The position numbers were made by a program, and so were the translations under genes. The notes under the pieces are model-generated. The model was not told the DNA's origin and made no database searches. It saw only the letters and a list, made by a program, of their open reading frames with translations. A stretch of DNA of 64,000 bases from NCBI RefSeq assembly GCF_988242995.1, contig NZ_OZ547043.1; one strand, written 5' to 3'. Shown here piece after piece: positions 15,321 to 34,952 of this stretch (position 1 is its first letter; the number at the start of each line of letters is the position of its first letter).

Positions 15321-18300
15321 ATGTTGTGGGGTTTTGTTTTTGTATCTTTTATCTCTAAGGAGCTTGCTTTGGGTCAATCAGAATACATTTCATGGGTAAA
15401 ATGTACTTCCTGGCTAAGTAACTTTGTGAATCTTAGAGGGTTGAGACAACCGGATGGACGTCCTCTTTATGAATATCATGCAACCAATGCTGAATATAAC
15501 CAATTAACGCAGCTACTCTGTGCTGTTGGTCAATCACAATCTAATATATGTAATAGAGACTTTGCTGCCTGTTTTGTTCTTTTTTGCTCTGAGTGGTACC
15601 GCAGGGATTATGAACGGCAATGCGGATGGACGTGGGACCCTATATATAAAAAAATAGGGATTTCATTCACCGCCACAGAGCTTGGTACTATCGTACCGAA
15701 AGGGATGGAAGATTACTGGCTGCGCCCAATTCGATTTTATGAATCTGAACGACGTAATTTTCTCGGAACATTATTCAGTGAAGGTGGTTTACCTTTCCGG
15801 CTACTCAAAGAATCAGACAGTCGCTTTCTGGCTGTTTTCTCCAGGATCCTTGGACAATATGAGCAAGCAAAGCAGTCAGGTTTTTCTGCCCTTTCGCTGG
15901 CAAGAGCTGTCATAGAAAAATCAGCGCTGCCAACTGTTTTTAGCGAAGATACCTCTGTAGAACTTATCAGTCATATGGCTGATAACCTCAATTCCTTAGT
16001 ACTTACTCACAACCTAACAAATCACAAAGAACCAGTACAACAGCTTGATAAGGTTCACCCTACCTGGCGAAGCGAGTTTCCAATACCGTTAGATGATGAA
16101 ACAGGAACGCATTTTTTGAATGGACTGCTATGCGCAGCCTCTGTAGAGGCTAAGCCTCGACTACAAAAAAATAAGAGTACGCGTTGCCAATTCTATTGGT
16201 CAGAAAAGCATCCAGATGAGCTTAGGGTGATAGTATCTCTTCCTGACGAAGTTTCCTTTCCTGTAACTAGCGAGCCGTCAACTACGCGCTTTGAACTTGC
16301 CATTTATGAAGATGGTGAGGAAGTCTCTGGCCTTGGGCCAGCCTATGCTTCCCTGGAAAACAGACAGGCAACAGTTCGATTACGTAAAAGCGAAGTGAGA
16401 TTTGTCAGGCAAAATCCATCTGCAGGTTTGTCGTTAGTGGCTCGTGCTGGAGGGATGATTGTTGGGAGCATTAAACTTGATGACAGTGAAATTGCCATTG
16501 GTGAGGTGCCGTTAACCTTCATCGTTGATGCAGATCAATGGCTGTTACAGGGACAGGCCTCCTGCAGTGTGCGAAGCAGCGATGTTCTGATTGTGCTCCC
16601 TCGGGACAATAGCACTGTTGCTGGTTTTGATGGCCAATCGAGTGCAGTAAACGTATTAGGACTTAAAGCGCTACCTGTTAAGGGATGTCAGGACGTTACA
16701 GTTACAGCAAATGAAACTTATCGGATTCGCACCGGAAGAGAACAAATCAGCATCGGAAGGTTTGCTCTAAATGGAAAGCGTGCAAGCTGGGTTTGTCATC
16801 CAGATGAGACATTTATTGGTGTACCAAAAGTCATTTCTACACTACCAGATATTCAAAGCATTGATGTAACGCGTTACCTGAGCGGAATTTCAATTGAGCA
16901 ATGTCATATACAAGAGATGCTAGGGGCTCAATATCTTTCTATCCGTAATAGTAATAATGAAACGCTCTTGCGTCGCAAAATCGGTATCTTGCCTGCTGAT
17001 TTCAGTATTGAGATAAAAGGTGGAATGCACGCAAATGAAGGCACTATCGTAATCACCACACAGCATCCTTGTGTAGCAACACTTAAAGATAAAACATTGG
17101 AGGCTACACGTAAGCGTACTGAGGGGCGAACAGAGATACAACTCAAAGCGGAAGGGGTACCTCCGGCATTTATTACATTACAAGTTCTGCCTAATTTGGC
17201 GGCTGATACCATCGACATTGAGTTACCTTTCCCAGCTAAAGGCTGCCTTGCTCTTGATGTAAACGGACGTCCTCTGGATAAAAACATTACGCTGCATGAT
17301 CTGCTGGGTTCCAGAGCATTCCTGTTCTCCAGAAATGGTGAGCCGACAAAATATACATTGCAGTTGCATTTGCGCTCCATTAGTGGATTACAGGCATGGC
17401 ACGAATGGAGTTATACGGCATTGAGCGAGCGTCCTGTTGAATTGAATCTCTATAGTCTACGTGAACACATTGAAAATCTGATTTCACTTGAGGCAGGTAT
17501 TGATCAGGTTGTTGAGATGCGTATTACGGGGGCGGGTGTGGTCATGGCCTGGCAAATTCGTCGCTATAAATACAGCCTGCGCTATGATTATGAAAAAGAA
17601 CTATTACTCAGCCAGTCAGTGAACCATCGTGCTGGACAGATTCCTTCCCCCGTTATCATGCTGTTAAGTGAACCCGAGAGGAAATCCATTCCCTTAGCAT
17701 CAAGAATGAGCGAGGGAGTGCCTGTCGGTGAATATGAGTTGAGCTCAATCGTTAACAAAAACGGACCATGGTTGGTTGTTCCTAAACCGGGTGAAGAGAT
17801 GGCTTTTCGCCCCTGCTTCATTCGTGGCGAATCTTCGTTACCGGTAGAAGAAAGCAACATCCGCTCATTGCAGAAAGCGACCCAGCTTTTTAATCCACAG
17901 GCAGAAGTTAATACCATCACACGGGTTCTCGGACAGATGGCTAACGATCCTGCCCATTCCGGCTGGCAATTTATGCGTAGCCTGTACGATCAATTTGGTT
18001 ATTTACCGCTGGCAACCTTTGAAGTATGGCGTGCACTAGTGCAGCATCCGCAGGCATTGGCGATGTCGCTCTTCAAATTCGAAATGTCAGCAGAGTATCT
18101 GAGTCGTATTGAGAATGAGTTCCCTATTTTATGGGAGTTTTTCCCCATCTTTGAGATCAAAGCTGCATCTGAGCGTTTCAAATTGTTCCTGAGCCAAAAA
18201 GGTGCACCGGAGGAAACCCAGAAATTACTGGTTACCAATATGTTTCAACGGCTGGGGCTCGTGTTCCCGACATATGCCGATGAAATTGAGAAATGGTTAA

Positions 18301-18659
18301 GTAATGGATATCTCCCCCCGTCTATTCCTGAATCTTGTGTCCACGGGTGGTATCAGGAGCTCTTACGTGAGCACAGTGAAGCTCGCTGGCCTGAATACGG
18401 CTGCAAGCGTCTGTATAAATGGATGATGTCACAAAAAAATCCAGTGATTGGTATTAATCCTGACGCAAATCACCGCTATTCCGTGGCCTGGTTACCCGTC
18501 TTCGCCGCAGCGGTGGCAAGCGGAAATGCTTCTTTTGAATCTGTATTTGACCGTAAACCCGGTGCCGTATTTTTCCTGAGGCAAGTCAGGGATTTCGATT
18601 CCCGCTGGTTTAAGGCCATCTTCCAGTTCAGCCTGTTGCGTTATGTTGCTAAAAAATAA
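15321..18659 (+). CDS. yjiT: Large protein of unknown function (1112 aa); intact counterpart of the K-12 yjiT pseudogene; candidate DruH-like partner of the downstream helicase
   Basis: Uninterrupted 3.3-kb ORF with no motif I recognise; AT-rich 5' end; alternative in-frame TTG start at 15369 has a perfect AAGGAG Shine-Dalgarno; stop is 12 nt before the next gene. Confidence 0.8.
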   Translation: MLWGFVFVSFISKELALGQSEYISWVKCTSWLSNFVNLRGLRQPDGRPLYEYHATNAEYNQLTQLLCAVGQSQSNICNRDFAACFVLFCSEWYRRDYERQCGWTWDPIYKKIGISFTATELGTIVPKGMEDYWLRPIRFYESERRNFLGTLFSEGGLPFRLLKESDSRFLAVFSRILGQYEQAKQSGFSALSLARAVIEKSALPTVFSEDTSVELISHMADNLNSLVLTHNLTNHKEPVQQLDKVHPTWRSEFPIPLDDETGTHFLNGLLCAASVEAKPRLQKNKSTRCQFYWSEKHPDELRVIVSLPDEVSFPVTSEPSTTRFELAIYEDGEEVSGLGPAYASLENRQATVRLRKSEVRFVRQNPSAGLSLVARAGGMIVGSIKLDDSEIAIGEVPLTFIVDADQWLLQGQASCSVRSSDVLIVLPRDNSTVAGFDGQSSAVNVLGLKALPVKGCQDVTVTANETYRIRTGREQISIGRFALNGKRASWVCHPDETFIGVPKVISTLPDIQSIDVTRYLSGISIEQCHIQEMLGAQYLSIRNSNNETLLRRKIGILPADFSIEIKGGMHANEGTIVITTQHPCVATLKDKTLEATRKRTEGRTEIQLKAEGVPPAFITLQVLPNLAADTIDIELPFPAKGCLALDVNGRPLDKNITLHDLLGSRAFLFSRNGEPTKYTLQLHLRSISGLQAWHEWSYTALSERPVELNLYSLREHIENLISLEAGIDQVVEMRITGAGVVMAWQIRRYKYSLRYDYEKELLLSQSVNHRAGQIPSPVIMLLSEPERKSIPLASRMSEGVPVGEYELSSIVNKNGPWLVVPKPGEEMAFRPCFIRGESSLPVEESNIRSLQKATQLFNPQAEVNTITRVLGQMANDPAHSGWQFMRSLYDQFGYLPLATFEVWRALVQHPQALAMSLFKFEMSAEYLSRIENEFPILWEFFPIFEIKAASERFKLFLSQKGAPEETQKLLVTNMFQRLGLVFPTYADEIEKWLSNGYLPPSIPESCVHGWYQELLREHSEARWPEYGCKRLYKWMMSQKNPVIGINPDANHRYSVAWLPVFAAAVASGNASFESVFDRKPGAVFFLRQVRDFDSRWFKAIFQFSLLRYVAKK

Positions 18660-18671
18660 AAAGGAATAAGG

Positions 18672-21600
18672 ATGACTACACGCTATTTTTCGTCACTTAT
18701 TGAACAATCGTTGTCTCGTTCAACTGAAGCAACGCTCAGTATCATGGGCGTTACAAACCCGCAGTTGCGTGAACATCTCGCGCAGCAAATGGGGGCTGAT
18801 TGTGGGAAACCGGGCTCATTCCTTGCTTCTCCGGTATTCCAGCAAATGTTTGGCTGGAAGGAGTCAAACCACACGATGCGCAGTCTGACGGAAGGCAACG
18901 CATTGTTGAGCAAAGCAGTGGTTGATTCACTGGATGATCAGAGTAATGGCCGGTACCGATTTGGTGCTGACTGGAAGCCTTTTACACACCAGTTAGCCAG
19001 TTGGAAAGCTTTGCTGGAAAAGAAACATTCAGTGGTGGTAACCAGTGGTACGGGTTCAGGTAAAACGGAATGTTTTATGGTACCGGTGCTGGAAGATCTT
19101 TACCGGGAACTGCATGAAAATGGCAACAATCCGTTGGTCGGTGTCCGAGCCCTTTTTCTCTATCCATTGAACGCCTTGATTAATTCACAGCGCGAGCGTC
19201 TGGATGCCTGGACGCGTGGTTTTGGTACTGGGATCCGCTACTGCTTGTATAACGGAAATACAGAAGAGCTCCACGCAAAAATGAAAACAGTGCAGGATAA
19301 TAGACCAAATGAAGTCTTATCCCGTGAAAAGATGCGTCTGGAGCCAGCCCCGATTCTGGTGACCAACGGCACGATGCTGGAATATATGATGGTTCGCCAG
19401 GTCGACGCCCCGATTATCCAGCAATCCAAAGCACAAAAATCACTACGCTGGATTGTACTGGATGAAGCGCATACCTATGTCGGGTCGCAGGCCGCTGAAC
19501 TGGCACTCCAGCTGCGTCGTGTGATGACAGCGTTTGGCGTGACGCCAGATGATGTGCGCTTTGTAGCGACCTCTGCGACCATTGCCTGCAGCGACGCCGA
19601 AAAGCAGCTGAAAAAATTTCTCTCTGAATTATCCGGTATCCCGCAGGAGCGCATCGATGTTCTGGACGGAAGTCGGGTGATTCCTGAACTGGAACCATCC
19701 AAAAACGTTTCTGTTCCGTTAGACGAAATAGAGCAAATACCTGATCTGGATCTAAAAGATAAAAATGATAATAAAATTAAAGGGATAAGCCCTGAGCGCT
19801 TTTATGCGCTTACGCACTCCCCCGAAGCGCGTTACATACGTGAAATGTTGGTTAGCCAACCCAATCCAATGAAACTGGATGAGATGACGCAGCGGTTAAA
19901 TGCGCTGACAAAACAGCATTACAGCCAGCAGGAAGTACTGCGTTGGATCGATGTCTGTTCAGGGACTCAACCTAATGCAAAGGATCCCGCATTTCTTAAA
20001 GTCAGGGCGCATATCTTCCAGCGTAATACCCAAGGAATATGGGCTTGTGTTGATAAAGATTGCAGATTAAAGCACGGTACACCGCTCGAAAAAGGCTGGC
20101 CCTTTGGCTATGTGTATGTGAACCAGCGACAAAATTGTGACTGTGGAAGCCCTGTATACGAAGTTGCATTCTGTAATGATTGTAATGAGCCTCATCTTCT
20201 GGCGCAGGACAAAAAGGGCAAACTTGTCCAATGGGAAAATAAAGGTGGCGATGAGTTCTCCTTGCAGGATGAAGTACCTGTTGAACATGACACTACAGAG
20301 GAAAAAGTCGAAAAAGAGAACGGTTTCCTGCCTCCGTTGATTATTGCCGCAGGAGAGACCAGCGAGACAGGCTATACCCTACAACGCCTCGACCACCAGA
20401 CGCGCCGTATTGGCGTTATTAACAATGACAGCATTCCGCTGATTATTAATGATGTTGAACAGGTTTGTAGCGCCAGTGGCTGTGGCTACAGAGGCATGAG
20501 TGGGAAACAGCCCTTCCGGCGTGCACTATTAGGTGGGCCATTTTACGTTACTAATATCGTGCCCACCGTTCTTGAGTATTGTCAGGACTTTACCAGTGAT
20601 GAAGGCAAAGAGGGCGTCGGACCAGATTCGTTGCCAGGGCGAGGACGTCGACTCATTACCTTTACGGACAGTCGACAAGGTACAGCTCGAATGGCGGTGC
20701 GTATGCAGCAAGAAGCAGAACGCAGTCTCTTACGCGGAAGCGTAGTCGAAATTCTGAGCTGGCATCAACGGACGCAAACGTCCACGGCGCCGAATGCCAA
20801 TGCCGATCTGGAAAAATTAGCGGCCAGGGCAAAGCAAGCCCGTGAGCAGGCAGAAGAATATCGAAGCTGGGGAATGCCAGACCAGGCGAAATTGTCACAA
20901 GCACAGGCTGAACAGCTTGAACAGGCTTATCAGGCTGCAACCGGTGGAAAAGCAGCAACTACCCTGGTATCCCGCACCTGGACAGAAATGGTTAACGAGC
21001 TTAAAGATAAAGCCGATATCCGTGGCCCGGTACTGAAATATAACCACTATTTGCAGCCTGAAGTGTTTAATAAAAACGGCGGGCCACTAAAGCTTTCGGA
21101 AATGTTGTTGTTCCGGGAATTCATGCGTCGCCCTAAACGGACTAACAGCCTGGAAACACAGGGGCTGGTTCAGGTTGGTTACCAGGGGCTGGAGAAAATA
21201 CATAAGAGCCCCTTGCACTGGCAGGAAAAAGGATTAACGCTGGATGACTGGCGCGATTTTCTCAAGGTTACGTTGGATCTTTATGTTCGCGAAAGCAACT
21301 TCACACAGCTGGATGATGAGCTGAAAAACTGGATTGGTAGCCGTTTTTCATCAAAATTCGTCCGTAACCCGGAATCAAAAGATCCTGAAGATAATCAGAA
21401 CAGACGCTGGCCTCAAATTCGTAATGGCAACGTATCCCATCGTTTAGCGAAGTTACTGATGCTGGGGGCTGGATTCAAAACCGTCAATACGGCGACTATT
21501 GATATTATCAATACATGGCTGAAAGAAGCATGGGCCCAACTTACCGGACCACTTGCAGTACTGAAACCCGATGGCAACCGTTTTTATTTACCGAAAGAGC

Positions 21601-24600
21601 ATATGACTTTTTCTTTAATCACGGATGCCTGGATTTGCCCGGTAACCAATAAAATCCTGGATACGGCTTTTAAAGGCTTAACCCCTTATCTGCCCACCCA
21701 TATTTCGTTCGAGCATCTTACCCAGGCGCAATATGACACTTTTGTCGCGCAGAAAGTCACCATGCCGGAAATCTGGAAGCTGGATCGTTCACAGGAAGAC
21801 TACGCAGAGGGTCTGGCAAAAGCACGAGACTGGGTCAACAATGATCCGCTGATCGCACAATTGCGGTCGGAAAACGTCTGGACAGACATCAACGATCGTG
21901 TAGTGGAAGGCGGTTTCTACTATCGCACTGCCGAGCACTCTGCCCAGCAGTCGTCAGAACGCCTGCAAAGCTATGAAAAGATGTTCAAGAACGGGCAACT
22001 AAATGTTCTCAACTGTTCCACCACCATGGAAATGGGGGTTGATATTGGGGGCATTACTGCGGTGGTAATGAACAACGTTCCGCCACATCCGGCCAACTAT
22101 TTACAGCGCGCCGGGCGAGCCGGGCGTAGTAAAGAATCACGCGCGATCTCTTATACCCTATGCAAAGGTAACCCACACGACCAGCAGGTTTTTGCCAACC
22201 CACTCTGGCCATTTGAAACCATGATCCCGGCACCCATGGTCGCGATGAACTCCGCCCGACTGGTGCAACGTCACGTCAATGCATTATTACTGTCTGACTT
22301 TTTATGTAACGTTATTGGCGAAACCGATAAAGAGAAAACCAGCCTCGATAGCCTCTGGTTTTTCGGTGAAGATGACGGGCAGTCAAAATGCGAACGCTTT
22401 AAAGTCTGGCTGGAACGCCCGGTTCTTGATATCGACATGGCGCTGGAACGGCTGGTGAAAGGTACGGCGTTGCATGGCGCAAGAGCCGAACATCTGCGGG
22501 ATAAAACAATCAATGCGATCACCTTCCTGCAACAGCGGTGGCTCTCCGTTTATCGCGATCTCGTGACCCAGGAGCGTGAGTCGCAGCCGCAAACGCCTTA
22601 TCGTAAGCGCATAGAGCTGGAGAAGAAACGGCACTGTGGCGAGTATCTGCTGCGCGATCTGGCTGCCAGAACCTTCCTGCCGGGATACGGTTTCCCGACA
22701 GATGTAGTGACGTTTGATAACTTCACGATGGAAGATTATATCCGCGAAAAATCGCAGAAAAGTCGTGATAAAAAGGACCGTGAAGATAACGTCTCCCGTT
22801 ATAAAGGATTACCTTCCCGTAACCTCGGTGTTGCCATTCGTGAATATGCACCGGGAGCAGAGATCATTCTTGATGGTCGTGTCTTCCGCTCTGCCGGTGT
22901 CTCACTGCACTGGCACAACATTAATGCTGATACCAATGAAGCCCAGCGTCTGGATTGCGCCTGGCGCTGTCACAAATGCGGGACCATTGGCTATGAAGAG
23001 GGGATGAGCAGTTCCGGGATGCTCTTTTGCTCCAACAGCGCCTGCGGCGAAAAAATAACCATGGATAATCGCCGTCAGGTGTTGCAGCCTGCCGGGTTTG
23101 TCACCGATGCACACGCTCCGGTAACGAACAATATTGAAACCATGAAATTCGTCCCGGTTGTCCCCGCGTGGGTCTTTGTTAAAGCAGAGCCTGTACCGTT
23201 GCCTAACCCGCTAATGGGTTATATGGCTTCTGGGGCTGATGGGCATGTTTTCCAGCAAAGTTTGGGGGAAGGTGGACACGGTTATGCATTGTGTCTGAGC
23301 TGTGGCCGTGCGGAGTCGATGCTGAATGAAAATGATGCACCGAAAAGTATGGAAGCTCACTATCCACCGCGTCCGGGTAAAGCGGACCGCGACAGCCAGA
23401 ATCATCGTCTGATTTGCCCCGGTTCGACGGCACTCATGAAGAACGTCACCCTGGGCGCACTGGCGCGCACCGATGTCTTTGAAATGGTTCTGCGCAAACC
23501 GCAAAACGGCGAGTATCTGCCAGATAACACAGAAGAGGGGCGGATTGTCGCTATGACTCTGGCGGTTGCTCTGCGTCAGGCGCTGGCAGGCGTTCTGGGT
23601 ATCTCCGCCGCAGAACTCGGCTATTCTGTACGTCCGGTCAGACTGGAGGATGGGCAATCGGTATTAGCCGTTCAGCTTTATGATGTGATCAGCGGTGGTG
23701 CTGGTTTTGCCTCCAGCGCACCGGTACATATTGAAGCTATATTGCAGGGAATGGTGAAACAGTTAGGCTGCCGCCATTGTGATACTGCATGCAGTGAATG
23801 TCTGCTTGATTCCCAGACTCGCCACGATCACGATTTGCTGGATCGCAAAGTGGCGCTGGCTTGGCTTGGCGATGACTTCACGTATTACATCGGTTTACCG
23901 GATGAAGAGACATTCTCGCTGCCGGATGCCCGCTACTGCCCTGGCGCTATTGGCGATACGATTCGCCGGGCGATTAACGAAGGCGCTGAAAAGCTCACCC
24001 TGTGGATGACTGGCGCGCCCAATGAGTGGGATTTATACGGCCGTCAGTTCCGCGCGGCTATTCAGAGCTATCGGCTAAAAGACAACGTCGAGGTCGATCT
24101 TGTTATTCCTGCGGGAGTGGATGACCCAGACCTGTTGCATGAACTATCGCAATTTACTGCGCTGGGTGTGCGGTTGTGCCATGTTGAGCAGGAGCTGCAA
24201 TTACCGATTGTTGCCCAGGTCACCTTTGCCGATCGCGTGATGACGCTGGCCTCTCGCAGTCAGCAGGCAACGATTCCGGGGCCGGAGTGGCACCTGAATG
24301 ACGAACTGGTGGTGCGTAGTCTCGGTTATCAAACGGTAGAACTGAACGAGTTTATTCTGCCCGCTAAAGCCGCCAACGCTGTCGAGCGGGTCAAAGACAT
24401 TCAGATCCACAAACAGTTGAATGGACCACTTTCGCAGTTTGGGCAACGCTTCTGGGACGTGCTGTTTAACGACCATGAAGAAGCGCAGTCACTGATGAAA
24501 AACACGCGAATTACCGGCGTTCACTATACCGATCGCTATCTGCAAAACCCGGTTGCGCTGGCGTTGTTGGGATCAATTCTGAAACCGCTAAAAACAAAGC

Positions 24601-25016
24601 TGACCGATGGCGCTGAAGTGGCGCTGGATACGCTGTTTAAAGATAAAGATCGCCCCGGTAACCGGCCTTTCCATGACTGGATGAGCATAGCGGATTTTCA
24701 GGATTTCGCTGATCAGTGGTTTGCTGCTGCGCTGGGCAGGCCGATAGAACTGACGGTGTTCGATTCGCCGCGCGATATCCCTCACCATCGTAAACTGACG
24801 GTGACTTTTGAGGATGGTCAGGTATTGAAGATCCGCTTCGATCAGGGGATGGGCTACTGGCGCATCAACTTTGCATCGCAATGGCATTACTTTGATTTCC
24901 GCGATGACGTTTCTTTCCAGTTAGTCAAAATGGCTCAGGCCTGCAAGGAAGGGAATGTGGCCAACAGCGAAGAGAGCTGGGCAACGGATGTGCTGGTGGA
25001 GGTGATCGCCTCCTGA
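18672..25016 (+). CDS. yjiV: Giant SF2 (DEAH-type) helicase with Cys-ribbon modules (2114 aa); intact counterpart of the K-12 yjiV pseudogene; candidate DruE-like defence helicase
   Basis: AAGGAATAAGG Shine-Dalgarno before ATG 18672; Walker [10 protein letters not shown] (aa 124-132, nt 19041-19067); motif II VLDEAH (aa 262-267); motif [10 protein letters not shown] (aa 1145-1152); Cys clusters near nt 20046-20184 and CxxC...CxxC near nt 23292-23812. Confidence 0.85.
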
Positions 25017-25072: not shown

Positions 25073-26119
25073 TTATTTGAGATATTCATCGAAAATGGCG
25101 AGTAATTCTTGATGTATACACGGCCATTCCTGACCTAAATTGACGGTACACAGGCCAATATCGAAGCCATTAATTTTATAACGATGTTTCACTGCGGTGT
25201 CTACGTGGGGGTATATTAATAAACCCCCTATGTTTTCGCCATTTTCAGGTTTTAACGACCATAAGTAATTCATCAGTTGATAAAGATTTTGAGAGTGAAA
25301 TTTTTCTGAGCCCATTCGTCGTGAAAAAATGCTCTTATAGTATTTGGCGTCAACGATAAGTATTTTTTCTGATGAGCGAATGGTGATGTCAGTTTCCATT
25401 CGAGGTAACAAATTAAGTGACTGATCCGATATGCTCGATGCATCCCATTTTAAATAAGAGCGGGTTGTATTTGCAGACGTTAATTCACGGCGGCAAAATT
25501 CAAAAAGAAACTTTTGATAAAGTAATGACATCTCTTTTTCGTTTCTTTCAAAATCATAGAAACGGTAGTGTCCTTTGTTTTGACCTGGGATAGAATTATT
25601 GACGATGAACTTACAGACGCTGATAACAAATTTATAATAACGCGTGTTCTTTCCGCCATTCAGATAGCTGAAATGCTGCGGAGTTAAATGAAGAGTGCTA
25701 ATGCCCGGTAATTTTCTATAAAGTGAACGAGCTTCATCTCTGATGGTTGAGTTTAACTTTTCATGCTTAATTAACATGGCTAATGTGCTTTTTATAATTC
25801 GGTTAGCCAGCGTATCTTCATTAAGCAGATCAAAAGTACTGACGGTTTTCCCATGATTAAGATGGAAGCCGCGTATTGTTTTAGCAAACTCTATTCGCCC
25901 TTTGATGCCAGGAATGATCTCGGTATTAGGATTGTAATCAAGCTCAAGCCCTCGGCGTGAAAGCTGTAAAACCCCTTTATTTAATACATACCCCAGGATA
26001 TCAAGAAGATTGTTACCGGGAATGGCTTCAAGGTCGGCCTGCTTAATTTCCTGTAAATAACCCCATGCATAGGTAAGCATGTAATAGATATTACGGACAG
26101 GTATCACGGGCTGTTCCAC
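25073..26119 (-). CDS. mcrC: McrC, nuclease subunit of the McrBC modified-cytosine restriction system
   Basis: 348-aa ORF; its start overlaps the mcrB stop; AT-rich codon usage typical of mcrBC; matches McrC length. Confidence 0.9.
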   Translation of the reverse strand: MEQPVIPVRNIYYMLTYAWGYLQEIKQADLEAIPGNNLLDILGYVLNKGVLQLSRRGLELDYNPNTEIIPGIKGRIEFAKTIRGFHLNHGKTVSTFDLLNEDTLANRIIKSTLAMLIKHEKLNSTIRDEARSLYRKLPGISTLHLTPQHFSYLNGGKNTRYYKFVISVCKFIVNNSIPGQNKGHYRFYDFERNEKEMSLLYQKFLFEFCRRELTSANTTRSYLKWDASSISDQSLNLLPRMETDITIRSSEKILIVDAKYYKSIFSRRMGSEKFHSQNLYQLMNYLWSLKPENGENIGGLLIYPHVDTAVKHRYKINGFDIGLCTVNLGQEWPCIHQELLAIFDEYLK

Positions 26120-27498
26120 TATGAGTCACCTAATAATTTGTCGGCCCATATCTGTTGTTTATAGGGGTCATCAAAGAAATATTCTTCGAGTAAAGGGGCG
26201 ATATCCGTCATCACAATTTCCTTAAGCCATTGCGTATCAGGAGAGGTGCCATCTTCCAACCCGGAGCAGAAGTAACTATGCCCAATGCGGAATCCTTTCC
26301 CAAGGATAGTGGCCTCTTTGCTGATTTCCTGGTTTAACTCATTCATTTTTTGGCATAAAGACTCAACAAATGAAGGTTCTGCTTTTTTATTCAGTAAAAA
26401 ATTACGGAACTGTGGTGTATCAAAACCAGGCTCAATATCTATGAAAGAAAATCGTCTGCGCAGGGCATAATCAACAACGGCCAGAGAGCGATCGGCAGTA
26501 TTCATTAAACCGATAATATAAACATTCTCCGGGACATAGAATCGTTCTTCATCGTTTTCGGAATAGGTTAAGGGAACAGACCAGTTTTCACCTCGTTTAT
26601 CATGTTCCATTAACATCATCACTTCGCCAAATACTTTACTGAGATTGGCACGATTGATTTCATCTATAATAAAAACATACTTTTTCTCTGGCTGCTCTTT
26701 AGCTTGCTGACAAAAATTGTAAAATATGCCGTCTTTACGTCGGAAGCCGACGCCATTCGGACGATAGCCCTGTATAAAATCCTCATAGCTATAAGATTGA
26801 TGGAACTGAACCATATTGACGCGTTGCGGAGCCTTTTCTCCTGTCAGCAGGTAAGCCAGACGGCGTGCAACAAAGGTTTTTCCAACGCCGGGCGGCCCCT
26901 GGAGGATAATATTTTTTTTGATGGTTAATCGTTTGAGTATCGTCTCTATCGTGGTTTCAGGGATAAACAAATCATTTAACGCATCTTCCAGACAGTATGA
27001 TTCAGTTTTTGACATAGGTGGAATAACACTCTTGCCAGAATTAAATATTAATTTATAGTCGTTGATTATGTTGTCCAGCATGGAGGCAAACCGGGTATAA
27101 TCAAGACCCTGTGAGACTTTTTGGGAACAGGCGTAATAGGACTGTCCGTATTTTTTAGGATAAACACCTGAAGTTGTCTGGAAATACTCTGCGATTGTTT
27201 TAGGTATGTCTGAAGAGAACTGCCATTGGGCATGTGGTTTATTCGTGTCGCTTATACCATAAGCCAAAACCAACTCATCAAAATCTTTATAATAGAGAAT
27301 AACGGGATATATACCGTTAGAAACTTCCTGACCTTCTCCCAGAAATGCAAACCAGGGAATAGATGTAAAATTGCCATAACCGAAACTCACTTTTACTCGC
27401 AGGTTACGGTAAGACGTTGGATAATCTTTGGTGGATTGTGAACTTTTTTGCTGTGCTTGCTCAATAAATTTTTCAATCCAGGCTTGAATTGATTCCAT
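26119..27498 (-). CDS. mcrB: McrB, GTP-binding AAA+ DNA-binding subunit of McrBC
   Basis: Start at ATG 27498 (MESIQAWIEKF..., AGGAAGG Shine-Dalgarno) gives 459 aa; the ORF-track Met six codons upstream is the alternative; Walker A GPPGVGKT; in-frame internal Met162 (codon 27013-27015) matches the known McrB-s short form. Confidence 0.9.
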   Translation of the reverse strand: MESIQAWIEKFIEQAQQKSSQSTKDYPTSYRNLRVKVSFGYGNFTSIPWFAFLGEGQEVSNGIYPVILYYKDFDELVLAYGISDTNKPHAQWQFSSDIPKTIAEYFQTTSGVYPKKYGQSYYACSQKVSQGLDYTRFASMLDNIINDYKLIFNSGKSVIPPMSKTESYCLEDALNDLFIPETTIETILKRLTIKKNIILQGPPGVGKTFVARRLAYLLTGEKAPQRVNMVQFHQSYSYEDFIQGYRPNGVGFRRKDGIFYNFCQQAKEQPEKKYVFIIDEINRANLSKVFGEVMMLMEHDKRGENWSVPLTYSENDEERFYVPENVYIIGLMNTADRSLAVVDYALRRRFSFIDIEPGFDTPQFRNFLLNKKAEPSFVESLCQKMNELNQEISKEATILGKGFRIGHSYFCSGLEDGTSPDTQWLKEIVMTDIAPLLEEYFFDDPYKQQIWADKLLGDS

Positions 27499-27659
27499 AA
27501 GATGTGCCTTCCTCATTGCTAAGCCTCTATTATCGCTTTCGCAACGTACTGAAACAATAGATTTTTACTGCAAAAGGTGGTGGGTAAATATTTACTGAGG
27601 GGGAAAGTTTCTATTGAGTCAGTGGAAGGCTCCCGGTGGTTAACCGGGAGTAAACGCTG

Positions 27660-28001
27660 TTACGCGACTTTCTGTTTACCGGCAATCACTCCAATAAACG
27701 CCTGCACCTGCTTTTGTTTACGTGCCGACAGCTTGCACACCTGGCGCAGCGACTGCATCAGTTCGCTCTCTTCGACGGCGAGTGGTTGGGCGGTGAGGAC
27801 AATACAGCCTTCCATCACTTTGACATCTACCGCCGTGCCGGTGGTAAAACCGGCGGCTTCCAGCCACTGACCTTTCAGGGTGATGGCGGGAATACGGCTG
27901 TAATCCGGGTAGCGACTCGCATAACTCACGGTTAATTGACGGTTATTTGCCGGGGAGACTTCTGCTTCGAACGGTTGTGCAATAGAATGCATGTCAGTCA
28001 T
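27660..28001 (-). CDS. symE: SymE, SOS-induced toxin-like protein (AbrB-fold; YjiW)
   Basis: 113-aa ORF ([52 protein letters not shown]...); LexA-box-like site about 78 nt upstream. Confidence 0.85.
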
Positions 28002-28071
28002 GATTACTATTCCTTAGAAATAGGGATTGTGATTAGCGGTGCGGGTGTGTTGGCGCACATCCGCACCGCGC
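27995..28071 (+). ncRNA. symR: SymR (RyjC) cis-antisense sRNA opposite the symE 5' end; coordinates approximate
   Basis: Candidate -10 TAGAAT at 27983-27988 on the + strand inside the symE 5' coding region; transcript would cover the symE start codon and Shine-Dalgarno and end at a GC-rich hairpin (about 28035-28071); ends not verifiable here. Confidence 0.4.
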
Positions 28072-28078
28072 TAAATAC

Positions 28079-28094
28079 CTGGATATATCATCAG
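28079..28094 (-). promoter_or_regulatory. LexA (SOS) box-like operator upstream of symE
   Basis: CTG-N10-CAG palindromic 16-mer (bottom strand CTGATGATATATCCAG) about 78 nt upstream of the symE start; consistent with the known SOS control of symE. Confidence 0.6.
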
Positions 28095-28185
28095 TAAATA
28101 CCGGGAAAGTCCAGCTAAAAATAGAATAAAATGGGCAATTTCCGGAATGATTTAAATATATTTATGTGAGTTATGATTGGCGAGA

Positions 28186-28215
28186 AATAATAAAAAGCGC
28201 ACCGGAAAGGTGCGC
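28186..28215 (-). terminator. Rho-independent terminator downstream of hsdS
   Basis: Stem GCGCACC / GGTGCGC with GGAAA loop at 28197-28215, followed on the minus strand by a T-rich tract (complement of 28186-28196), 14 nt after the hsdS stop. Confidence 0.7.
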
Positions 28216-28228
28216 CAGAAAATAATGA

Positions 28229-29653
28229 TCAGAACTTTTTACGCGAGGCTTTTTTACCCCCGCTGGCTGCGCGCTCAGCTTTGATTTTCTCCAGCAACGC
28301 AGCGGCGCTGTTTTCTCCGCTGATTAAATCCGGGTTTTCGGCCCGCCACTGGGCGGTGAGTTCACCACGGAACGCTTTTGCCAGGATGGATTGCGTCAGG
28401 TTGTTGACGCGGGCTAAGGCGTTGTTGACCTGTTTTTCTATGGAGTCGGCGTAGGCGAAGAGTTGCTCGACGCGGCGAACGATTTCGTGTTGTTCTTCTA
28501 TAGACGGTAAAGGGACAAATGCATTTTTAAGATCTTTTAAATTTAATGTCTTTCTGGCGACCTCCTTAGATGACTGAACTAGCCATGTTTGCATAACTGG
28601 TGAACTTAACCATATATGGAGAAACATAGGAACAATAATCTTATATTCAGGAGATATTCTGGCAACGGCACGAGCGATATTAACATTTATATCTTCTCTA
28701 ACAATACCTATTCTACCTATAGCCCCAACAATTGTTACAAGAATGTCATTCTTTCGTACTTTGGAACGCTTATATTGTAAATCTATTTCCTTTGAAATTT
28801 TACGAAGATGATTTAAATCTACTTCACCATCGTTAATATCACAAACACGAATTAATTCTATACCGTCTTTTATATCATCTCCAGGTTGCACCACACCATA
28901 ACATAATGGTCTTTGTGTATTGATAATGTTATTCAAAATTGTTTCACTCCAGTCTTCTGGAATAAGGATTTTGTAGTTATCTAATTCAACTTTTTTTGTT
29001 ATAAAATCTTTATCTTCTTTGGTCAACCTACCAGTTACTGCCGCAGCCAACACCGCCTGACGAAAACGTTTCAGGATTTGTGGGATTTGCTCAAGGCGTG
29101 CTTTGGTGCTGTCTACCTGCGCCAGCAGCGTATCGAGTTTTTCAGCGATGATTTTTTGCTCGGCAAGTGGTGGCAACGGAAGTAGGGTATCTTGAAGTGT
29201 CCTGGAAGAAAGATGCTTTACAGTAACCGAGGACGTATTTGCATTGATTGCGGATAAATATCCTGGTAAGGCGTGATAGAAAAACCTTTTATTGTATTTG
29301 TCTTCCTGAACTTCAATTTTACATACTCGTTGATTTAACAGAGCTGGTTCTGAGCACCATATAGTTGCATTAAAATCACCATCCATTCCCACGATTAAGT
29401 CTTCGGGATATACCCAATATCCCTCAGGAATTTGACCCGAGTAATAAGTCGATGTATTACCTTTTAGAACATCACGAATTCTAATTAATGGTACACCATC
29501 TTTACGATTATTAAATTCTGACGACTTAAAAGCAAAACCGTTTGTGATGTTTGCTACGGAATCCATTGAAATACGTAACCAGCTATCATGGATTGAAAGT
29601 AACCCATTGATATTTTGCTCAATTAATTCTTTTGATGTTGAGTTGAAACTCAT
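28229..29653 (-). CDS. hsdS: Type I restriction-modification specificity subunit HsdS (474-aa allele)
   Basis: 474-aa ORF; GC-richer conserved N-terminal, central and C-terminal segments separated by two very AT-rich blocks (target-recognition domains); 4-nt overlap with hsdM. Confidence 0.9.
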   Translation of the reverse strand: MSFNSTSKELIEQNINGLLSIHDSWLRISMDSVANITNGFAFKSSEFNNRKDGVPLIRIRDVLKGNTSTYYSGQIPEGYWVYPEDLIVGMDGDFNATIWCSEPALLNQRVCKIEVQEDKYNKRFFYHALPGYLSAINANTSSVTVKHLSSRTLQDTLLPLPPLAEQKIIAEKLDTLLAQVDSTKARLEQIPQILKRFRQAVLAAAVTGRLTKEDKDFITKKVELDNYKILIPEDWSETILNNIINTQRPLCYGVVQPGDDIKDGIELIRVCDINDGEVDLNHLRKISKEIDLQYKRSKVRKNDILVTIVGAIGRIGIVREDINVNIARAVARISPEYKIIVPMFLHIWLSSPVMQTWLVQSSKEVARKTLNLKDLKNAFVPLPSIEEQHEIVRRVEQLFAYADSIEKQVNNALARVNNLTQSILAKAFRGELTAQWRAENPDLISGENSAAALLEKIKAERAASGGKKASRKKF

Positions 29654-31239
29654 TCCTTCACCCCACCAAACGCTTCTTCCAGCAACTGACGCTGTGCATC
29701 CGCCTCATCGCTCGCTCCCAGTTCACGTATCAGCGCATCCAGTTCGCCCAGCGCCTGTACCAGCTCGCCCATCGCTTCTGCCGCTAATACATCCGGCTCC
29801 GGCAGGTTGTCGGCATCAATGCTATCTTTATCTTTCAGCCAGGAGATATCCAGCGAATCGGATTTCGTGGTGCGGATCCACTCGCGGGTGAACTTACGCC
29901 AGCGGCTGGTAGCCAGGTGCTGGTCGGTGTTTTTGTTCTCTTCGCTGTCGGCAACTTCCGTCTCTTCGGCGTTAAAACTCCATTCCCCTTCGCTACGCGG
30001 GCTTAAACCGTGCGGATCTTCGCCATACACGCGCTCAAACGGCTGCAGATGCTCGTCGGTAAACGGCGTGCGTTTGCCGAAGCTCGGCATATTGGTACGC
30101 AGGTCGTACACCCACACATCATCGGTACAGTTCTTATCCTGATGCGGGTTCGCCACCGTCCCTTTGGTAAAGAACAGCACGTTCGCCTTCACGCCCTGCG
30201 CGTAAAAAATACCGGTCGGCAGACGCAGAATAGTGTGCAGATGACACTTATCCATCAGGTCACGACGGATGTCCGTGCCTTTGCCGCCTTCAAACAGCAC
30301 GTTATCCGGCACCACCACCGCCGCACGACCGCCGGGGTGCAGTGTTTCGATAATATGCTGCATAAAGCACAATTGTTTGTTGCTGGTCGGGTGAACAAAG
30401 GTACGGGTAATGTTGGTGCCTGCGGCGCTACCAAACGGCGGGTTAGTGGCGACAATATGCGCCTTCGGCAGGTTTTCACCGTCGCTACCCAGGGTGTTGC
30501 CCAGACGGATTGCGCCACCGTGGTCGAGGTTGCCTTCGATATCGTGCAGCAGGCAGTTCATTAGCGCCAGACGACGGGTGCCGGGTACCAGTTCGAGGCC
30601 GATAAACGCGCGGTGGATCTGGAAATCCTGCGTGTCGCCATCAAGGTCGTCCAGATCGTTAGTCTGCGACTTAACGTAGCGGTCAGCTTCAATCAAAAAG
30701 CCCGCTGTACCTGCTGCCGGGTCCTGCACCACTTCACGCGGCTGCGGTTTCAGCAGATGAATAATGGTTTTAATCAGCGGACGTGGGGTGAAGTACTGGC
30801 CCGCGCCAGACTTGGTTTCGTTGGCGTTTTTCTGCAACAGCCCTTCGTACATATCGCCGAAGTCATCGCGTGACTTACCGTGCGCGCCGTTGTACCAGTC
30901 CAGTGAATCCATATTGCTGACCAGTTCGGTCAACTGTTTCGGCTGGGTAATGGTGGTGTTGACGTTCTGGAACACCGCCTGCACCAGCTTTTGATTGTCG
31001 GCGCCCAGATGCACCAGCAGGTTACGGTAGAACTGCAACTGCTCCTGGCCGATGCGGGATTTCAGGTCATCCCAGCGGTAGCCTTCCGGCAGGTATTCCG
31101 CTTCCTGTCCGGTTTCTTTACACATTTTCAAAAACAGCAGCGAGGCGAGTTCATTGACGTAGTTTTGATAGGAAACGCCGCCATCGCGCAGGTTGTCGCA
31201 CAGTTTCCACAGCTTCGCGACCAGATCGTTATTGTTCAT
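29650..31239 (-). CDS. hsdM: Type I R-M N6-adenine DNA methyltransferase HsdM
   Basis: 529-aa ORF; catalytic NPPF motif (VATNPPFGSAAG); AdoMet-binding region. Confidence 0.95.
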   Translation of the reverse strand: MNNNDLVAKLWKLCDNLRDGGVSYQNYVNELASLLFLKMCKETGQEAEYLPEGYRWDDLKSRIGQEQLQFYRNLLVHLGADNQKLVQAVFQNVNTTITQPKQLTELVSNMDSLDWYNGAHGKSRDDFGDMYEGLLQKNANETKSGAGQYFTPRPLIKTIIHLLKPQPREVVQDPAAGTAGFLIEADRYVKSQTNDLDDLDGDTQDFQIHRAFIGLELVPGTRRLALMNCLLHDIEGNLDHGGAIRLGNTLGSDGENLPKAHIVATNPPFGSAAGTNITRTFVHPTSNKQLCFMQHIIETLHPGGRAAVVVPDNVLFEGGKGTDIRRDLMDKCHLHTILRLPTGIFYAQGVKANVLFFTKGTVANPHQDKNCTDDVWVYDLRTNMPSFGKRTPFTDEHLQPFERVYGEDPHGLSPRSEGEWSFNAEETEVADSEENKNTDQHLATSRWRKFTREWIRTTKSDSLDISWLKDKDSIDADNLPEPDVLAAEAMGELVQALGELDALIRELGASDEADAQRQLLEEAFGGVKE

Positions 31240-31439: not shown

Positions 31440-34400
31440 TCAGGCCAGCTCGTCCCAAATGTAATCGCTGAATTTATCGAGCAGGTTGTCGAGATTATCG
31501 TCAAAGGTTCTTTGCAGCATCGCCTTCCCGCCGCGACGGTGGAAGTTGCCGGTTTTGAAGACATCGTCGTCGAGCACCACTTTCTCTTTCAGCGCCTGCG
31601 CTAAACGATCGAGCCAGCTTAATTGCTCGCTGCTCCAGTCATTTTCGCCCTTAATGCGCGTCAGCGCGTGATCGACACGTTCCTCAAACGGTTTCAGCGC
31701 ATCGCCCACCGCAGCGCGGCGAATATGTCCAATCAGCCGGGCGGCGATATCTTCATTGCGCGTCTCTTGCCATGCTTTGCGCAGGGAAGATTCCTCAAAG
31801 TGCTGGCGGTCAAACCACTCCTGTAGCTCGACCAGCCCTTTACGGGTGAGATCGCGCGGGCGATTAATCACCGCCTGCAATGCCGGCTGTGCATTCGGGG
31901 AACGTTGCACCAGCGAGTCAAAGGCTTCGAGGAAATCCTGCGGCGTGTCGTAATCACCGTACAGCGATTTTACGCTCACCACTTCATCGTCGATATCGAG
32001 GAAGATCGGCGCATCATTCAGGTTGTTGATGTCGGTTTTCAGCTTTTCCAGACGGGCGATAAAGCCAGGTAGTTTGTTAAAGACTTCGGCGCTCCAGTGC
32101 GGCCCTTTTTCCCGCAGGCGCGAGGCGAAGCCGTTAAAGTTAACCCCCGCCGCGTCCTGGCATAGCTCATCCAGACGACGCACCTGTTTGTCTATCGTTT
32201 CGCTGCGGTCACGGTTAAACGTGGCCAGGCCGATGATGCGCTGGAGCTTCGCCACCAGTTGTTCATGGCTGTGCTCGGCAAAACTGCGGCCATCCGCTTC
32301 GGTGATTTTATAGGTTTCTGAATCGGTAATTTCGTTGACCAGCGTTTGCAGTTCCACCTTCGGACGCACCACCACCGGACGCATGGTGTCGACGCTCTCC
32401 AGCGTGCTGTAGATATCGACACAGTCGAAAATCTTAAAGCTGGTTTTATTCACCTCCGGGCATAAGCGCGTGGCGCGCCCTTTCATCTGCTCGTACAGAA
32501 TACGGCTGCGTACCTTGCGCAGGAACACGATATTACAGATCGACGGAATATCGACGCCGGTCGTCAGCAGGTCGACGGTGACCACGATATTGGGCAGCCG
32601 CTCTTTATTGAAGCGGGTGATCATGGTCTGCACTTTTCGCGCGTCTTTATCGGCATCACCGGTGATCTTGATGATCGCGTCGTGCTCCAGTTGTGGATAC
32701 TTTTTCTTGAACGCGGTACGCAGCTCTTCCACCACCATATCGGCATGGGCATTGGTGACGCAGAAGACCAGCGTTTTTTGTGACCCGGTCGGGTCAAGGT
32801 AGTTGGTGAGTTCGTTACAGACGGCGCGGTTAAACGCCGGGATCACCAGGCCACGGTTAAAGTCGGCGACCTCAAAATCCTGATCGTCTTCCAGGGTGTC
32901 GTTGATCACTTCCCCCTGCGGGCTGATGCGCTCAACCTGCTCGCCTTTGGAGAGATAAACCCCTTCCTGGGCGTTGCGGGTGGTGATCTGAATCGGCGGA
33001 TCCTGGTCGATCAGAAAACCGTCGATAACCGCGGTACGGTAGGTGTAACGGTAAACCGGCTCGCCGAAAATCTGCACCGTATGCAGAGCCGGGGTGGCGG
33101 TGAGAGCGATTTTTACCGCATCGAAGTGATCGAGAATACGACGGTAGGCAGAGACGTAATCCAGCTGACTGCGGAACTGTAGTTCGCCTTCGGTCTGCTC
33201 TTTATCGAGAATGTAGCCGCGATGCGCTTCATCGACGACGATACAGTCGTAACGGGCTACCGGCATCGGTTCATCCGATTGCAGGGTGCGTTTCACCAGC
33301 GACTGTACGGTGGCAACGTGAATTTTGGTGCTGTCTTCAGGGAATTTATCCGTCAGCCCTTTAATGTCGAAAATGCTGTTAAAGGTGTCGCCGTTAATAC
33401 GCGTATCTTCAAACGCGCCCAGCGCCTGTTCGCCAAGAGAACGGCGGTCGACAAGGAAGAGAATGCGTTTAAAACGCTGGGACTGGATCAGGCGGAACAT
33501 CATGGCAATTGCCGTACGGGTTTTACCGGTACCGGTTGCCATCGCCAGCAGGATCTCTTGTTGCCCCTTGACGATTGCCTTTTCAACCGCGCGGACGGCA
33601 TCTTCCTGATAATAACGCAGGCCCAGCTCACTCATGCCAGGGTTATCGGCAAACCACTGATTCTGTTTTTGCGGTTCGCTGCCGAGCATTTCCAGCAGCT
33701 CTTCCGGGCGGTGCCACTCGGGTAAGGCTTTCGACATATTGCGGGTATCACGCACGTCGCGATACCAGATGCCGCTTTTAATCTTCATCGCTGCGCGGTA
33801 TTCGCGCCCGTTGGTTGAGTAGCAGAAGGGGATTTTAAACCGTTGTTGGCCGCTGGTGTCCTGCCAGCTGGTTTCATACTCTGGCACCGCTTCATGCACT
33901 TCATCTGGTGAATAGTGCTCAAGCAAGGTTTCCCGCAGGAAGCCATTATCGAAACATTTACTGTAGCGATACGACTCATTGAGCTTGCCGGGAACGTCGA
34001 TATTTTTACGTTTCGCTTCTACCACCGCGATGGGTTTGAGACCGACAAACAGCACATAATCCGCAAAGCCCTGATTACCCGTTTCATCTTTCCCGGTCGG
34101 CCATTCGGCAATGGCTTTATTGACGCCGGGTTCCGGGCGCGCGCCTTTGGAGAAGCGCAGGGTTTTGCTATCGGCCTGCCAGCCTGCTTTACGCAGTTGC
34201 GCGTCAATCAGGAAGCGGCTCTCTTCTTCGCTAAGATTGAGTGTACGCTTGATGGCCTGATCGGTAATTTCTTTGTGGTAAGCCTTACGTTCCTGTTCGG
34301 TCTGCTTGGCCAGTTCCGCGTTCTTCTCGGCGAGCTGTGCTTCCAGTGCAGCAAGGCGAGCCTGGGTTTGCGCTTCGGTTTCCTGCTGCTTGCCTTCCAG

Positions 34401-34952
34401 AATGGCGATATAGCCGTTCAGGGCAACCAGCTTCTGCTGTTGTGCTTCGACTTCTGCCTGACTCTGCGCTTTTTCTCGCACCTGCTGTTCAAGCTGTTGT
34501 TTTAGCGTCAGCACTTCCTGGTGATAGAGGTTTTCACCACGTTCCGGCAACACAAACACCGGCACCGGGAAGTCATAATCTTTAGTGACCAGACGGTAGT
34601 ACCAGACAGCCAGGCGAAACCCGAGTCGCAGGCACATCTGGGCATCGTCGAGATCGTTATGATATTCGTGCACCGCCTGGTTACCAATGCGGCGTAATTT
34701 GTGGAATACAGAGAGAATGTTGTCATCAACGAAGGCGATTTTGCCGAGTTCGCGCAGGAGATCGTGTTGATTCTCACAAGGGGGGATGTTGAGTAACAGA
34801 CCAAGATGTTTCGCTGTGGCTTCGCCAAACATACGCATTTTAATCAGCGTCGTGTTGGGATCATCCGGGTAGTTATTTTCCGCCGCACAGGCGATGGCAT
34901 AGGTAAAGTCGTTGACGCCCTTCAGGAATTCAAAATTGGATTTATTCATCAT
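31440..34952 (-). CDS. hsdR: Type I R-M restriction endonuclease/translocase HsdR
   Basis: 1170-aa ORF; SF2 motifs (Walker A MATGTGKT, DEAH VVDEAHR); N-terminal nuclease region. Confidence 0.95.
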   Translation of the reverse strand: MMNKSNFEFLKGVNDFTYAIACAAENNYPDDPNTTLIKMRMFGEATAKHLGLLLNIPPCENQHDLLRELGKIAFVDDNILSVFHKLRRIGNQAVHEYHNDLDDAQMCLRLGFRLAVWYYRLVTKDYDFPVPVFVLPERGENLYHQEVLTLKQQLEQQVREKAQSQAEVEAQQQKLVALNGYIAILEGKQQETEAQTQARLAALEAQLAEKNAELAKQTEQERKAYHKEITDQAIKRTLNLSEEESRFLIDAQLRKAGWQADSKTLRFSKGARPEPGVNKAIAEWPTGKDETGNQGFADYVLFVGLKPIAVVEAKRKNIDVPGKLNESYRYSKCFDNGFLRETLLEHYSPDEVHEAVPEYETSWQDTSGQQRFKIPFCYSTNGREYRAAMKIKSGIWYRDVRDTRNMSKALPEWHRPEELLEMLGSEPQKQNQWFADNPGMSELGLRYYQEDAVRAVEKAIVKGQQEILLAMATGTGKTRTAIAMMFRLIQSQRFKRILFLVDRRSLGEQALGAFEDTRINGDTFNSIFDIKGLTDKFPEDSTKIHVATVQSLVKRTLQSDEPMPVARYDCIVVDEAHRGYILDKEQTEGELQFRSQLDYVSAYRRILDHFDAVKIALTATPALHTVQIFGEPVYRYTYRTAVIDGFLIDQDPPIQITTRNAQEGVYLSKGEQVERISPQGEVINDTLEDDQDFEVADFNRGLVIPAFNRAVCNELTNYLDPTGSQKTLVFCVTNAHADMVVEELRTAFKKKYPQLEHDAIIKITGDADKDARKVQTMITRFNKERLPNIVVTVDLLTTGVDIPSICNIVFLRKVRSRILYEQMKGRATRLCPEVNKTSFKIFDCVDIYSTLESVDTMRPVVVRPKVELQTLVNEITDSETYKITEADGRSFAEHSHEQLVAKLQRIIGLATFNRDRSETIDKQVRRLDELCQDAAGVNFNGFASRLREKGPHWSAEVFNKLPGFIARLEKLKTDINNLNDAPIFLDIDDEVVSVKSLYGDYDTPQDFLEAFDSLVQRSPNAQPALQAVINRPRDLTRKGLVELQEWFDRQHFEESSLRKAWQETRNEDIAARLIGHIRRAAVGDALKPFEERVDHALTRIKGENDWSSEQLSWLDRLAQALKEKVVLDDDVFKTGNFHRRGGKAMLQRTFDDNLDNLLDKFSDYIWDELA

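Follow-up and report, generated by a model that had tools for sequence, protein, structure and literature searches.

The 64-kb window analysed here, meaning the whole 64,000-nucleotide stretch of contig NZ_OZ547043.1, carries a symE gene whose start region is overlapped on the opposite strand by the small RNA SymR and preceded by a LexA-type (SOS) box. The symE coding sequence occupies positions 27660..28001 on the minus strand and encodes a 113-aa SymE protein of the AbrB/MazE fold, an assignment drawn from the open reading frame (ORF) list, Pfam and identity with the E. coli K-12 protein. The product matches the Pfam family PF08845 (SymE_toxin) with E = 1e-21 and 77 bits against a cutoff of 29, and it shares 94% protein identity with K-12 SymE, from which seven amino-acid substitutions separate it. 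No matching model for SymE was found in PADLOC.

The genes around symE are read from the same strand and are taken from the ORF list. On one side lie mcrC (25073-26119, minus strand) and mcrB (26119-27516, minus strand), the latter encoding an AAA_5/McrB-type protein according to Pfam. On the other side lie hsdS (28229-29653), hsdM (29650-31239) and hsdR (31440-34952), all on the minus strand, with the hsdS product recognised by Pfam as a type I specificity subunit. A sequence-only reading of this DNA had placed symE between mcrB and hsdS, and these coordinates bear it out. The mechanical mcrB ORF begins six codons before the RefSeq-style start (MRKAHL-MESIQ...), and its true start here is probably at 27498, because the RefSeq mcrB coding sequence measures 1380 nt (459 aa) in both K-12 and strain 2452.

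An intrinsic terminator of hsdS, found by the terminator scan as an 8-bp stem followed by TTTTTATTATT (28196-28216, minus strand), sits between the hsdS stop codon (28229) and the symE promoter region and so parts the hsd operon from symE. At the far end of symE, a 7-bp GC-rich hairpin (CTCCCGG, a 7-nt loop, CCGGGAG) lies at 27630-27650 on the minus strand, 9 nt past the stop codon; it is without a U-tract, and the terminator scan made no call on it. The wider neighbourhood also holds an intact Druantia type III defence pair (15321-25016, plus strand), directly upstream of mcrC. It is composed of DruH (1112 aa; 15321-18659, plus strand; PADLOC 1830 bits) and DruE (2114 aa; 18672-25016, plus strand; PADLOC 2692 bits), the latter with DEAD, Helicase_C and MrfA Zn-binding domains in Pfam. 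The K-12 counterparts of these two genes are the pseudogene yjiT and fragments annotated as 'DEAD/DEAH box helicase', also pseudogenes.

The locus is almost certainly the orthologue of symE/symR of E. coli K-12 and stands where that locus normally does in the immigration control region, flanked by mcrB and hsdS; control by LexA, SymR and Lon is presumed by extension from K-12. It is therefore not a new locus: symE/symR is already known and was characterised in 2007, and the copy described here differs from that of K-12 by ordinary allelic variation alone. Alignment to the K-12 locus, which the sequence-only reading had proposed as a check, gives 95.1% DNA identity over the full interval with the same gene order, mcrC-mcrB-symE-hsdS-hsdM-hsdR. 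The K-12 locus, symE (yjiW)/symR (ryjC), belongs to the same families (RF01809 and PF08845) and has the identical TAGAAT hexamer in the SymR promoter, the same distance from gene to LexA box and the same hsdS terminator upstream. Compared base by base, the SymR -10 element, the ATG region and the hsdS terminator are conserved, and the stem of the 3' hairpin has one substitution. What sets the two loci apart is the seven amino acids, one LexA-box base, the sequence of the Shine-Dalgarno (SD)/SymR loop and that one base of the 3'-hairpin stem. Among 5426 complete E. coli genomes, 2872 match the mcrB-hsdS interval, and symE is annotated in all of the matches. The proposal that a toxin lies inside the restriction cluster thus stands as to position, though this position is the normal K-12 one, already noted in reviews of the immigration control region (PMC12707154), and not a new placement; the label 'toxin' is contested, as discussed below.

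SymR is a 77-nt cis-antisense RNA to the symE leader, SD sequence and start codon, and lies at 27996..28072 on the plus strand. It was identified by a match to the Rfam family RF01809 that covers model positions 1-77 of 77 and scores 93.1 bits against a gathering score of 61 (E = 2e-18). In a scan of the 64-kb window with all Rfam families, it is the single match above threshold. Neither this match nor that of SymE to its Pfam family could plausibly arise by chance. The full-length match identifies as SymR the candidate antisense RNA that had been suspected over the symE start. SymR spans the symE ATG (27999-28001), the SD sequence AAGGA (28011..28015, minus strand; 9 nt before the ATG, as read from the sequence) and about 70 nt of the leader. 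K-12 SymR is likewise 77 nt long and starts 6 nt inside the symE ORF, as it does in the window.

The promoter of SymR lies within the symE coding sequence. Its -10 hexamer, TAGAAT, is read directly at 27983-27988 on the plus strand, within symE codons 5-7, and ends 7 nt before the SymR 5' end (27996); the -10 element named in the sequence-only reading is thereby upheld in both position and strand. The hexamer is TAGAAT or TACAAT in 34/34 loci, though the overlapping codons shift from His-Ser to Asp-Cys. In K-12, two synonymous mutations in the SymR -10 abolish the RNA (Kawano 2007, PMC1891008), and these mutations presumably hit the hexamer TAGAAT. A possible weak -35 element, TTCTGC, lies at 27960..27965 on the plus strand, 17 bp upstream of the -10; it is a poor match to TTGACA and is offered with low confidence from reading the sequence. 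The consensus promoter scan called neither this -35 nor the SymR promoter as a whole.

SymR folds into two strong hairpins, in agreement with the description by Kawano 2007 (PMC1891008). The minimum free energy (MFE) of the 77-nt RNA is -41.4 kcal/mol, with z = -7.2 relative to shuffled sequences. According to the Rfam consensus structure and the MFE fold, the 5' stem-loop (27996..28034, plus strand; Rfam positions 1-39) presents in its apical part the sequence antisense to the symE SD. The GC-rich hairpin that had been placed at about 28035-28071 is found in the fold as the SymR 3' hairpin, with 15 pairs, including G-U pairs, and a 4-nt loop at 28036..28069 on the plus strand. When variants of this 3' hairpin are compared with the Rfam consensus structure, both-sided compensatory changes occur at 8/14 pairs and 98% of cells are paired; in 500 shuffles, neither the count of pairs with a both-sided change nor the covariation score was ever reached. 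The SymR strand is more stable than its complement in 27/27 variants, by a mean of about 12 kcal/mol, and its conserved G-U pairs would be A-C mismatches if read on the opposite strand. Given the better folding of the SymR strand and these conserved G-U pairs, the structure is tuned for the antisense RNA.

The 3' hairpin was also considered as a canonical intrinsic (Rho-independent) terminator of SymR. This was rejected: no U-tract follows it, the next bases being GCUAAAUACC, and the terminator scan gives no call there. It is a structural or stabilising hairpin rather than a canonical terminator. In the ST131-type alleles (ST131 and U12A), the central 6 nt of the hairpin (28050-28055) are exactly inverted, from CGCCAA to TTGGCG on the symE strand; the inversion falls within the palindrome, and the stem stays intact.

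The LexA box, TACTGATGATATATCCAGGT, lies on the symE strand at 28077..28096 and is assigned from its consensus match, K-12 orthology and conservation. Its CTG-N10-CAG core, CTGGATATATCATCAG, occupies 28079-28094, and 78 nt separate the near edge of the core from the initial A of the symE start codon (28001), in agreement with the operator position given in the sequence-only reading. The bare CTG-N10-CAG motif was rejected as evidence for the box, being common: the 64-kb window holds 26 copies where about 14 are expected. It was therefore replaced by a 20-mer score against the consensus TACTG(TA)5CAGTA (PMC6590174), with dinucleotide-shuffled windows as background. TACTGATGATATATCCAGGT matches this consensus at 14/20 positions, ties for the best score in the window and has A or T at 8/10 spacer positions; 0.08 sites as good and with an intact core are expected per shuffled window. 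The score alone would be moderate evidence for a LexA box, and orthology and conservation appear to be the stronger support. An equally good match, TTCTGCTTTTTTATTCAGTA (14/20, with intact CTG..CAG), lies at 26377-26396 within the mcrB coding sequence. K-12 and strain 2452 carry the same bases there, and the match is probably a coincidence of the coding sequence.

The box differs from the K-12 yjiW/symE box by one base next to CAG, reading TACTGATGATATAT[C]CAGGT here, with [A] in K-12. The C form occurs in 13/14 E. coli alleles, K-12 being the exception, and E. whittamii also has C. Nucleotide diversity in the box is low, with pi = 0.02 in 14 E. coli alleles taken across the similarity ranking (a small, non-random sample); this is among the lowest values in the module and compares with 0.065 at four-fold degenerate sites. 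Of the 33 loci with enough upstream sequence, 31 keep the CTG-N10-CAG core intact; of the remaining two, one is a symE pseudogene that is truncated and the other has TTG in place of CTG. The AT-rich spacer within the box has another sequence in diverged loci, for example TACTGGTTAAATTTACAGGT.

The K-12 box belongs to the listed SOS regulon (PMC6590174, PMC11228462). Its heterology index (HI) is 7.9 (PMC11228462), which we grade as mid-to-weak. In a 2024 RNA-seq study, symE was weakly induced, 1.5-fold by AZT, and its expression was LexA-dependent (PMC11228462). SOS control of symE is thus probably modest, given the index of the K-12 box and the 1.5-fold rise with AZT.

In K-12, the LexA site overlaps the symE promoter (PMC3874152), and a comparable arrangement is suggested here by alignment across genera. 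A conserved CTGGAC (28109..28114, minus strand), with TGGACT (28108-28113) as an alternative register, is the probable -35 region of symE, its promoter role being deduced from the alignment. CTGGAC, CTGGAT or TTGGAC is present in 32/34 loci, at a fixed distance of 19-20 bp on the upstream side of the CTG in the LexA box. The probable -10 element is TGATAT (28085..28090, minus strand), inside the LexA-box spacer and at a 17-bp spacing from TGGACT in the alignment; Raoultella-type loci have TAAATT in its place. The putative symE promoter would then consist of TGGACT, a 17-bp spacer and TGATAT, with a transcription start site near 28078 and a leader of about 77 nt, so that SymR would pair with nearly the whole symE leader. 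The consensus promoter scan did not call this proposed promoter. Its sole hit, TCGCCA-17-TATATT (28183-28155, minus strand), was rejected as a conserved symE promoter because it is absent from the O157 and ST131-type loci, which share the LexA box and CTGGAC.

Diversity within the module is concentrated in one short segment. A hypervariable 6-nt patch (28013..28018), identified from allele diversity, coincides with the apical loop of SymR and the 5' part of the symE SD region. In the same small, non-random sample of 14 E. coli alleles, its pi reaches 0.55, about 8 times the value at four-fold sites (0.065), and the mean over the module is 0.07. No other 6-mer of the module is as diverse, and 0 of 100,000 random draws of six four-fold sites reach a pi of 0.55. 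The 7-nt segment between the hairpin arms (28012-28018) occurs in 7 versions among the 14 alleles, and in many more across genera, and is flanked by the arms CTATT and AATAG, which are invariant in the E. coli alleles. The window has TCTAAGG as its SD/SymR loop, whereas K-12 has CCTGGAG. A purine-rich SD core (GGAG, AGGA, GAG or GGG) is nonetheless present in every allele. The segment from the ATG to the SymR start has a pi of 0 in these 14 alleles and is, together with the LexA box, the least diverse part of the module. The haplotypes of the loop patch were considered as mutual inversions of one another, and this was rejected by inspecting them by eye.

Three sources of the loop diversity are conceivable: a mutational hotspot, recombination that moves old alleles around, and selection that favours distinct recognition loops. 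We tentatively raise, as an unlikely reading, that the patch is under diversifying selection or is a mutational hotspot, and that the loop acts as an allele-specific code that insulates SymR/symE pairs from one another or tunes SymE translation strain by strain.

The comparison covered 34 loci. When one genome per species was scanned with a plain pattern, the module turned up in 20 further genomes, among them Pantoea, Raoultella, Kosakonia, Kluyvera, Leclercia, Pseudocitrobacter, Silvania and Escherichia whittamii. The search pattern required the 5'-hairpin arms and the ATG, so conservation at those positions in these genomes is not independent evidence; all other positions could vary freely. 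Some of the SymE proteins in the further genomes are visibly far more diverged than those of the E. coli alleles. In the E. coli loci L003-L013, a type I hsd operon always directly precedes symE, with hsdS or hsdR as the adjoining gene and with different hsd families, and the other neighbour of symE varies among mcrB, a gene of the STY4851/ECs_5259 family, GmrSD and yjiS. Where yjiS is the neighbour, the C-terminus of SymE differs, reading ...SSKTPR instead of ...AGKQKVA. E. coli IH5 (L014, 1494-1694) has a 3' symE fragment alone, annotated as a hypothetical pseudogene, which adjoins an antirestriction gene and IS21 remnants and stands outside the usual context of the immigration control region.

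The regulation of the K-12 module provides the framework for interpreting these features. Kawano, Aravind and Storz described in K-12 a 77-nt RNA, RyjC, renamed SymR, that lies opposite the 5' end of yjiW (symE) and has its promoter inside the ORF (PMC1891008). They also reported a LexA site for K-12 symE and its induction by mitomycin C (PMC1891008). Loss of SymR through the -10 mutations was accompanied by a rise of about 3-fold in symE mRNA and of more than 7-fold in SymE protein. The RNA is very stable, outnumbers symE mRNA about 10-fold and acts without a need for RNase III or Hfq, and Lon degrades SymE (PMC1891008). SymR covers the SD, and its main effect is a translational block (PMC4147584, PMC3874152). 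Deletion of symER in K-12 produced no visible phenotype (PMC1891008).

Transferred to the window, these data suggest several layers of control. LexA bound at 28077-28096 would overlap the symE promoter and keep symE transcription low until DNA damage inactivates LexA. SymR would be made constitutively from the promoter inside symE codons 5-7 as a stable RNA with two hairpins, and is predicted to match, with perfect complementarity, nearly all of the symE leader, SD and AUG included. Pairing between SymR and symE mRNA would block translation and modestly lower the mRNA level, and Lon would remove the residual SymE. For the strain in the window, expression of the module, binding by LexA, induction in the SOS response, the block on translation and turnover by Lon are all expected from orthology and conservation with K-12.

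By its features, the module is of the SymE/SymR type I kind. It has a SymE_toxin domain, an opposite-strand SymR, overlap of the SD and start codon, and a SymR promoter inside the ORF; its RNA has the two-hairpin architecture (fold z = -7.2), with covariation shown for the 3' hairpin. Its LexA operator combines CTG-N10-CAG and an AT-rich spacer with conservation and orthology to a K-12 SOS-regulon site. The hallmarks of a classical hok/sok-like type I toxin-antitoxin (TA) system, namely a small hydrophobic membrane toxin and an antitoxin RNA that is unstable, are missing, SymE being a 113-aa protein with a DNA-binding fold, and K-12 SymR being stable and SymE labile. SymE/SymR is an acknowledged atypical member of the type I TA systems (PMC4147584).

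The SOS-controlled type I pairs tisB/istR-1 and dinQ/agrB of E. coli likewise combine repression of a gene by LexA with a small RNA that blocks translation of that gene (PMC4147584). Their toxins are small hydrophobic membrane peptides, whereas SymE is a soluble 113-aa AbrB/MazE-fold protein. SymR further differs from their RNAs in being a true cis-antisense over the 5' end and stable, while SymE is Lon-labile (PMC4147584, PMC1891008). In hok/sok, Sok is unstable and acts via the upstream mok reading frame; in contrast, SymR is very stable, covers the SD and AUG directly, is present at about 10-fold over its target and does not require RNase III or Hfq (PMC1891008, PMC3874152).

Several other explanations of these features were weighed. 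The hairpin at 28036-28069 might not belong to an antisense RNA but act mainly at the DNA level or on the sense strand, for example as a structure in the symE mRNA leader or as a block to transcription running on from hsdS. The region is indeed near-palindromic, it has a weak minus-strand Rfam match of 20 bits, and the strand complementary to SymR also beats shuffled sequences in folding (z = -5.2). Against these stand the full-length plus-strand match of 93 bits, the G-U pairs that would become A-C mismatches on the other strand, and the greater stability of the plus strand in every one of the 27 variants. In addition, hsdS already has its own canonical terminator further upstream of symE (28196-28216), and SymR has been detected experimentally in K-12 (PMC1891008), which leaves the sense-strand explanation scarcely plausible beside an antisense RNA hairpin. 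That symE/symR is real but its LexA-like box decayed or arose by chance, with SOS control lost, is highly improbable as well. Both half-sites are non-consensus beside the core (CTGA...CCAG), the bare motif recurs 26 times in the window and the 20-mer match of 14/20 is one fewer than in K-12, where the box is already mid-to-weak by its HI of 7.9 and induction is weak (PMC11228462). However, the C variant is the majority form, carried by 13 of the 14 E. coli alleles and by E. whittamii, the box ranks with the segments of lowest diversity (pi = 0.02, in the small allele sample), and CTG and CAG are preserved across genera while the spacer varies. Several validated SOS boxes end in CCAG, which also counts against a decayed box. 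A functional coupling of symE/symR to the neighbouring type I restriction system, for example in limiting or answering damage from self-restriction, would go beyond mere sharing of a hotspot. It could account for the hsd operon of varying type I family that in E. coli always stands just upstream of symE while the other neighbour changes, and for the hsdS 3'-end remnant found upstream of symE in the Pantoea loci. Yet in Raoultella, Leclercia and Kosakonia, no hsd gene was detected in the at least 2 kb available upstream, in a search with E. coli reference proteins only. The terminator between hsdS and symE also speaks against coupling, as does the view of Kawano 2007 (PMC1891008) and the EcoSal review (PMC12707154) that mobile elements are co-located in a defence island, and deletion of symER has no known phenotype (PMC1891008). 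We consider such coupling very unlikely.

The activity of the protein itself is the most contested point. Judged from the K-12 protein, SymE is harmful when overproduced, and its biochemical activity is disputed. As originally proposed, and in line with the RefSeq product name 'endoribonuclease SymE', the protein would be an endoribonuclease-type toxin: once induced in the SOS response, it would associate with ribosomes and cleave mRNA, and SymR would serve as a classical type I antitoxin. This reading agrees with the co-purification of SymE with ribosomes and with the lower protein synthesis and greater RNA decay seen on overproduction (Kawano 2007, PMC1891008). Thompson et al. 2022, as summarised in PMC11894785, found no RNase activity and no RNA cleavage by SymE, but non-specific DNA binding and nucleoid compaction. 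SymE has a MazE/AbrB DNA-binding fold (Pfam; PMC11894785), and a stable SymR paired with a labile protein is the reverse of classical TA logic (PMC1891008). The endoribonuclease reading is therefore doubtful, and as the activity of SymE, non-specific DNA binding with nucleoid compaction is at present better supported than RNA cleavage. The match to the known SymE with cis-antisense SymR and a LexA-type box, which the sequence-only reading had proposed, is supported by Rfam, Pfam, K-12 DNA and protein identity and gene order.

For annotation, the analysis provides coordinates for SymR and its -10, for the LexA box and for the SD and likely promoter of symE. In the genomes compared, the RefSeq annotation includes symE and omits symR. 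Two caveats apply: the label "endoribonuclease toxin" is disputed, and the SymR hairpin is no canonical terminator. Kawano 2007 (PMC1891008) mentions 14 symE copies in Erwinia, and, if the hypervariable loops do act as insulating recognition elements, they would matter in genomes with many symE copies.
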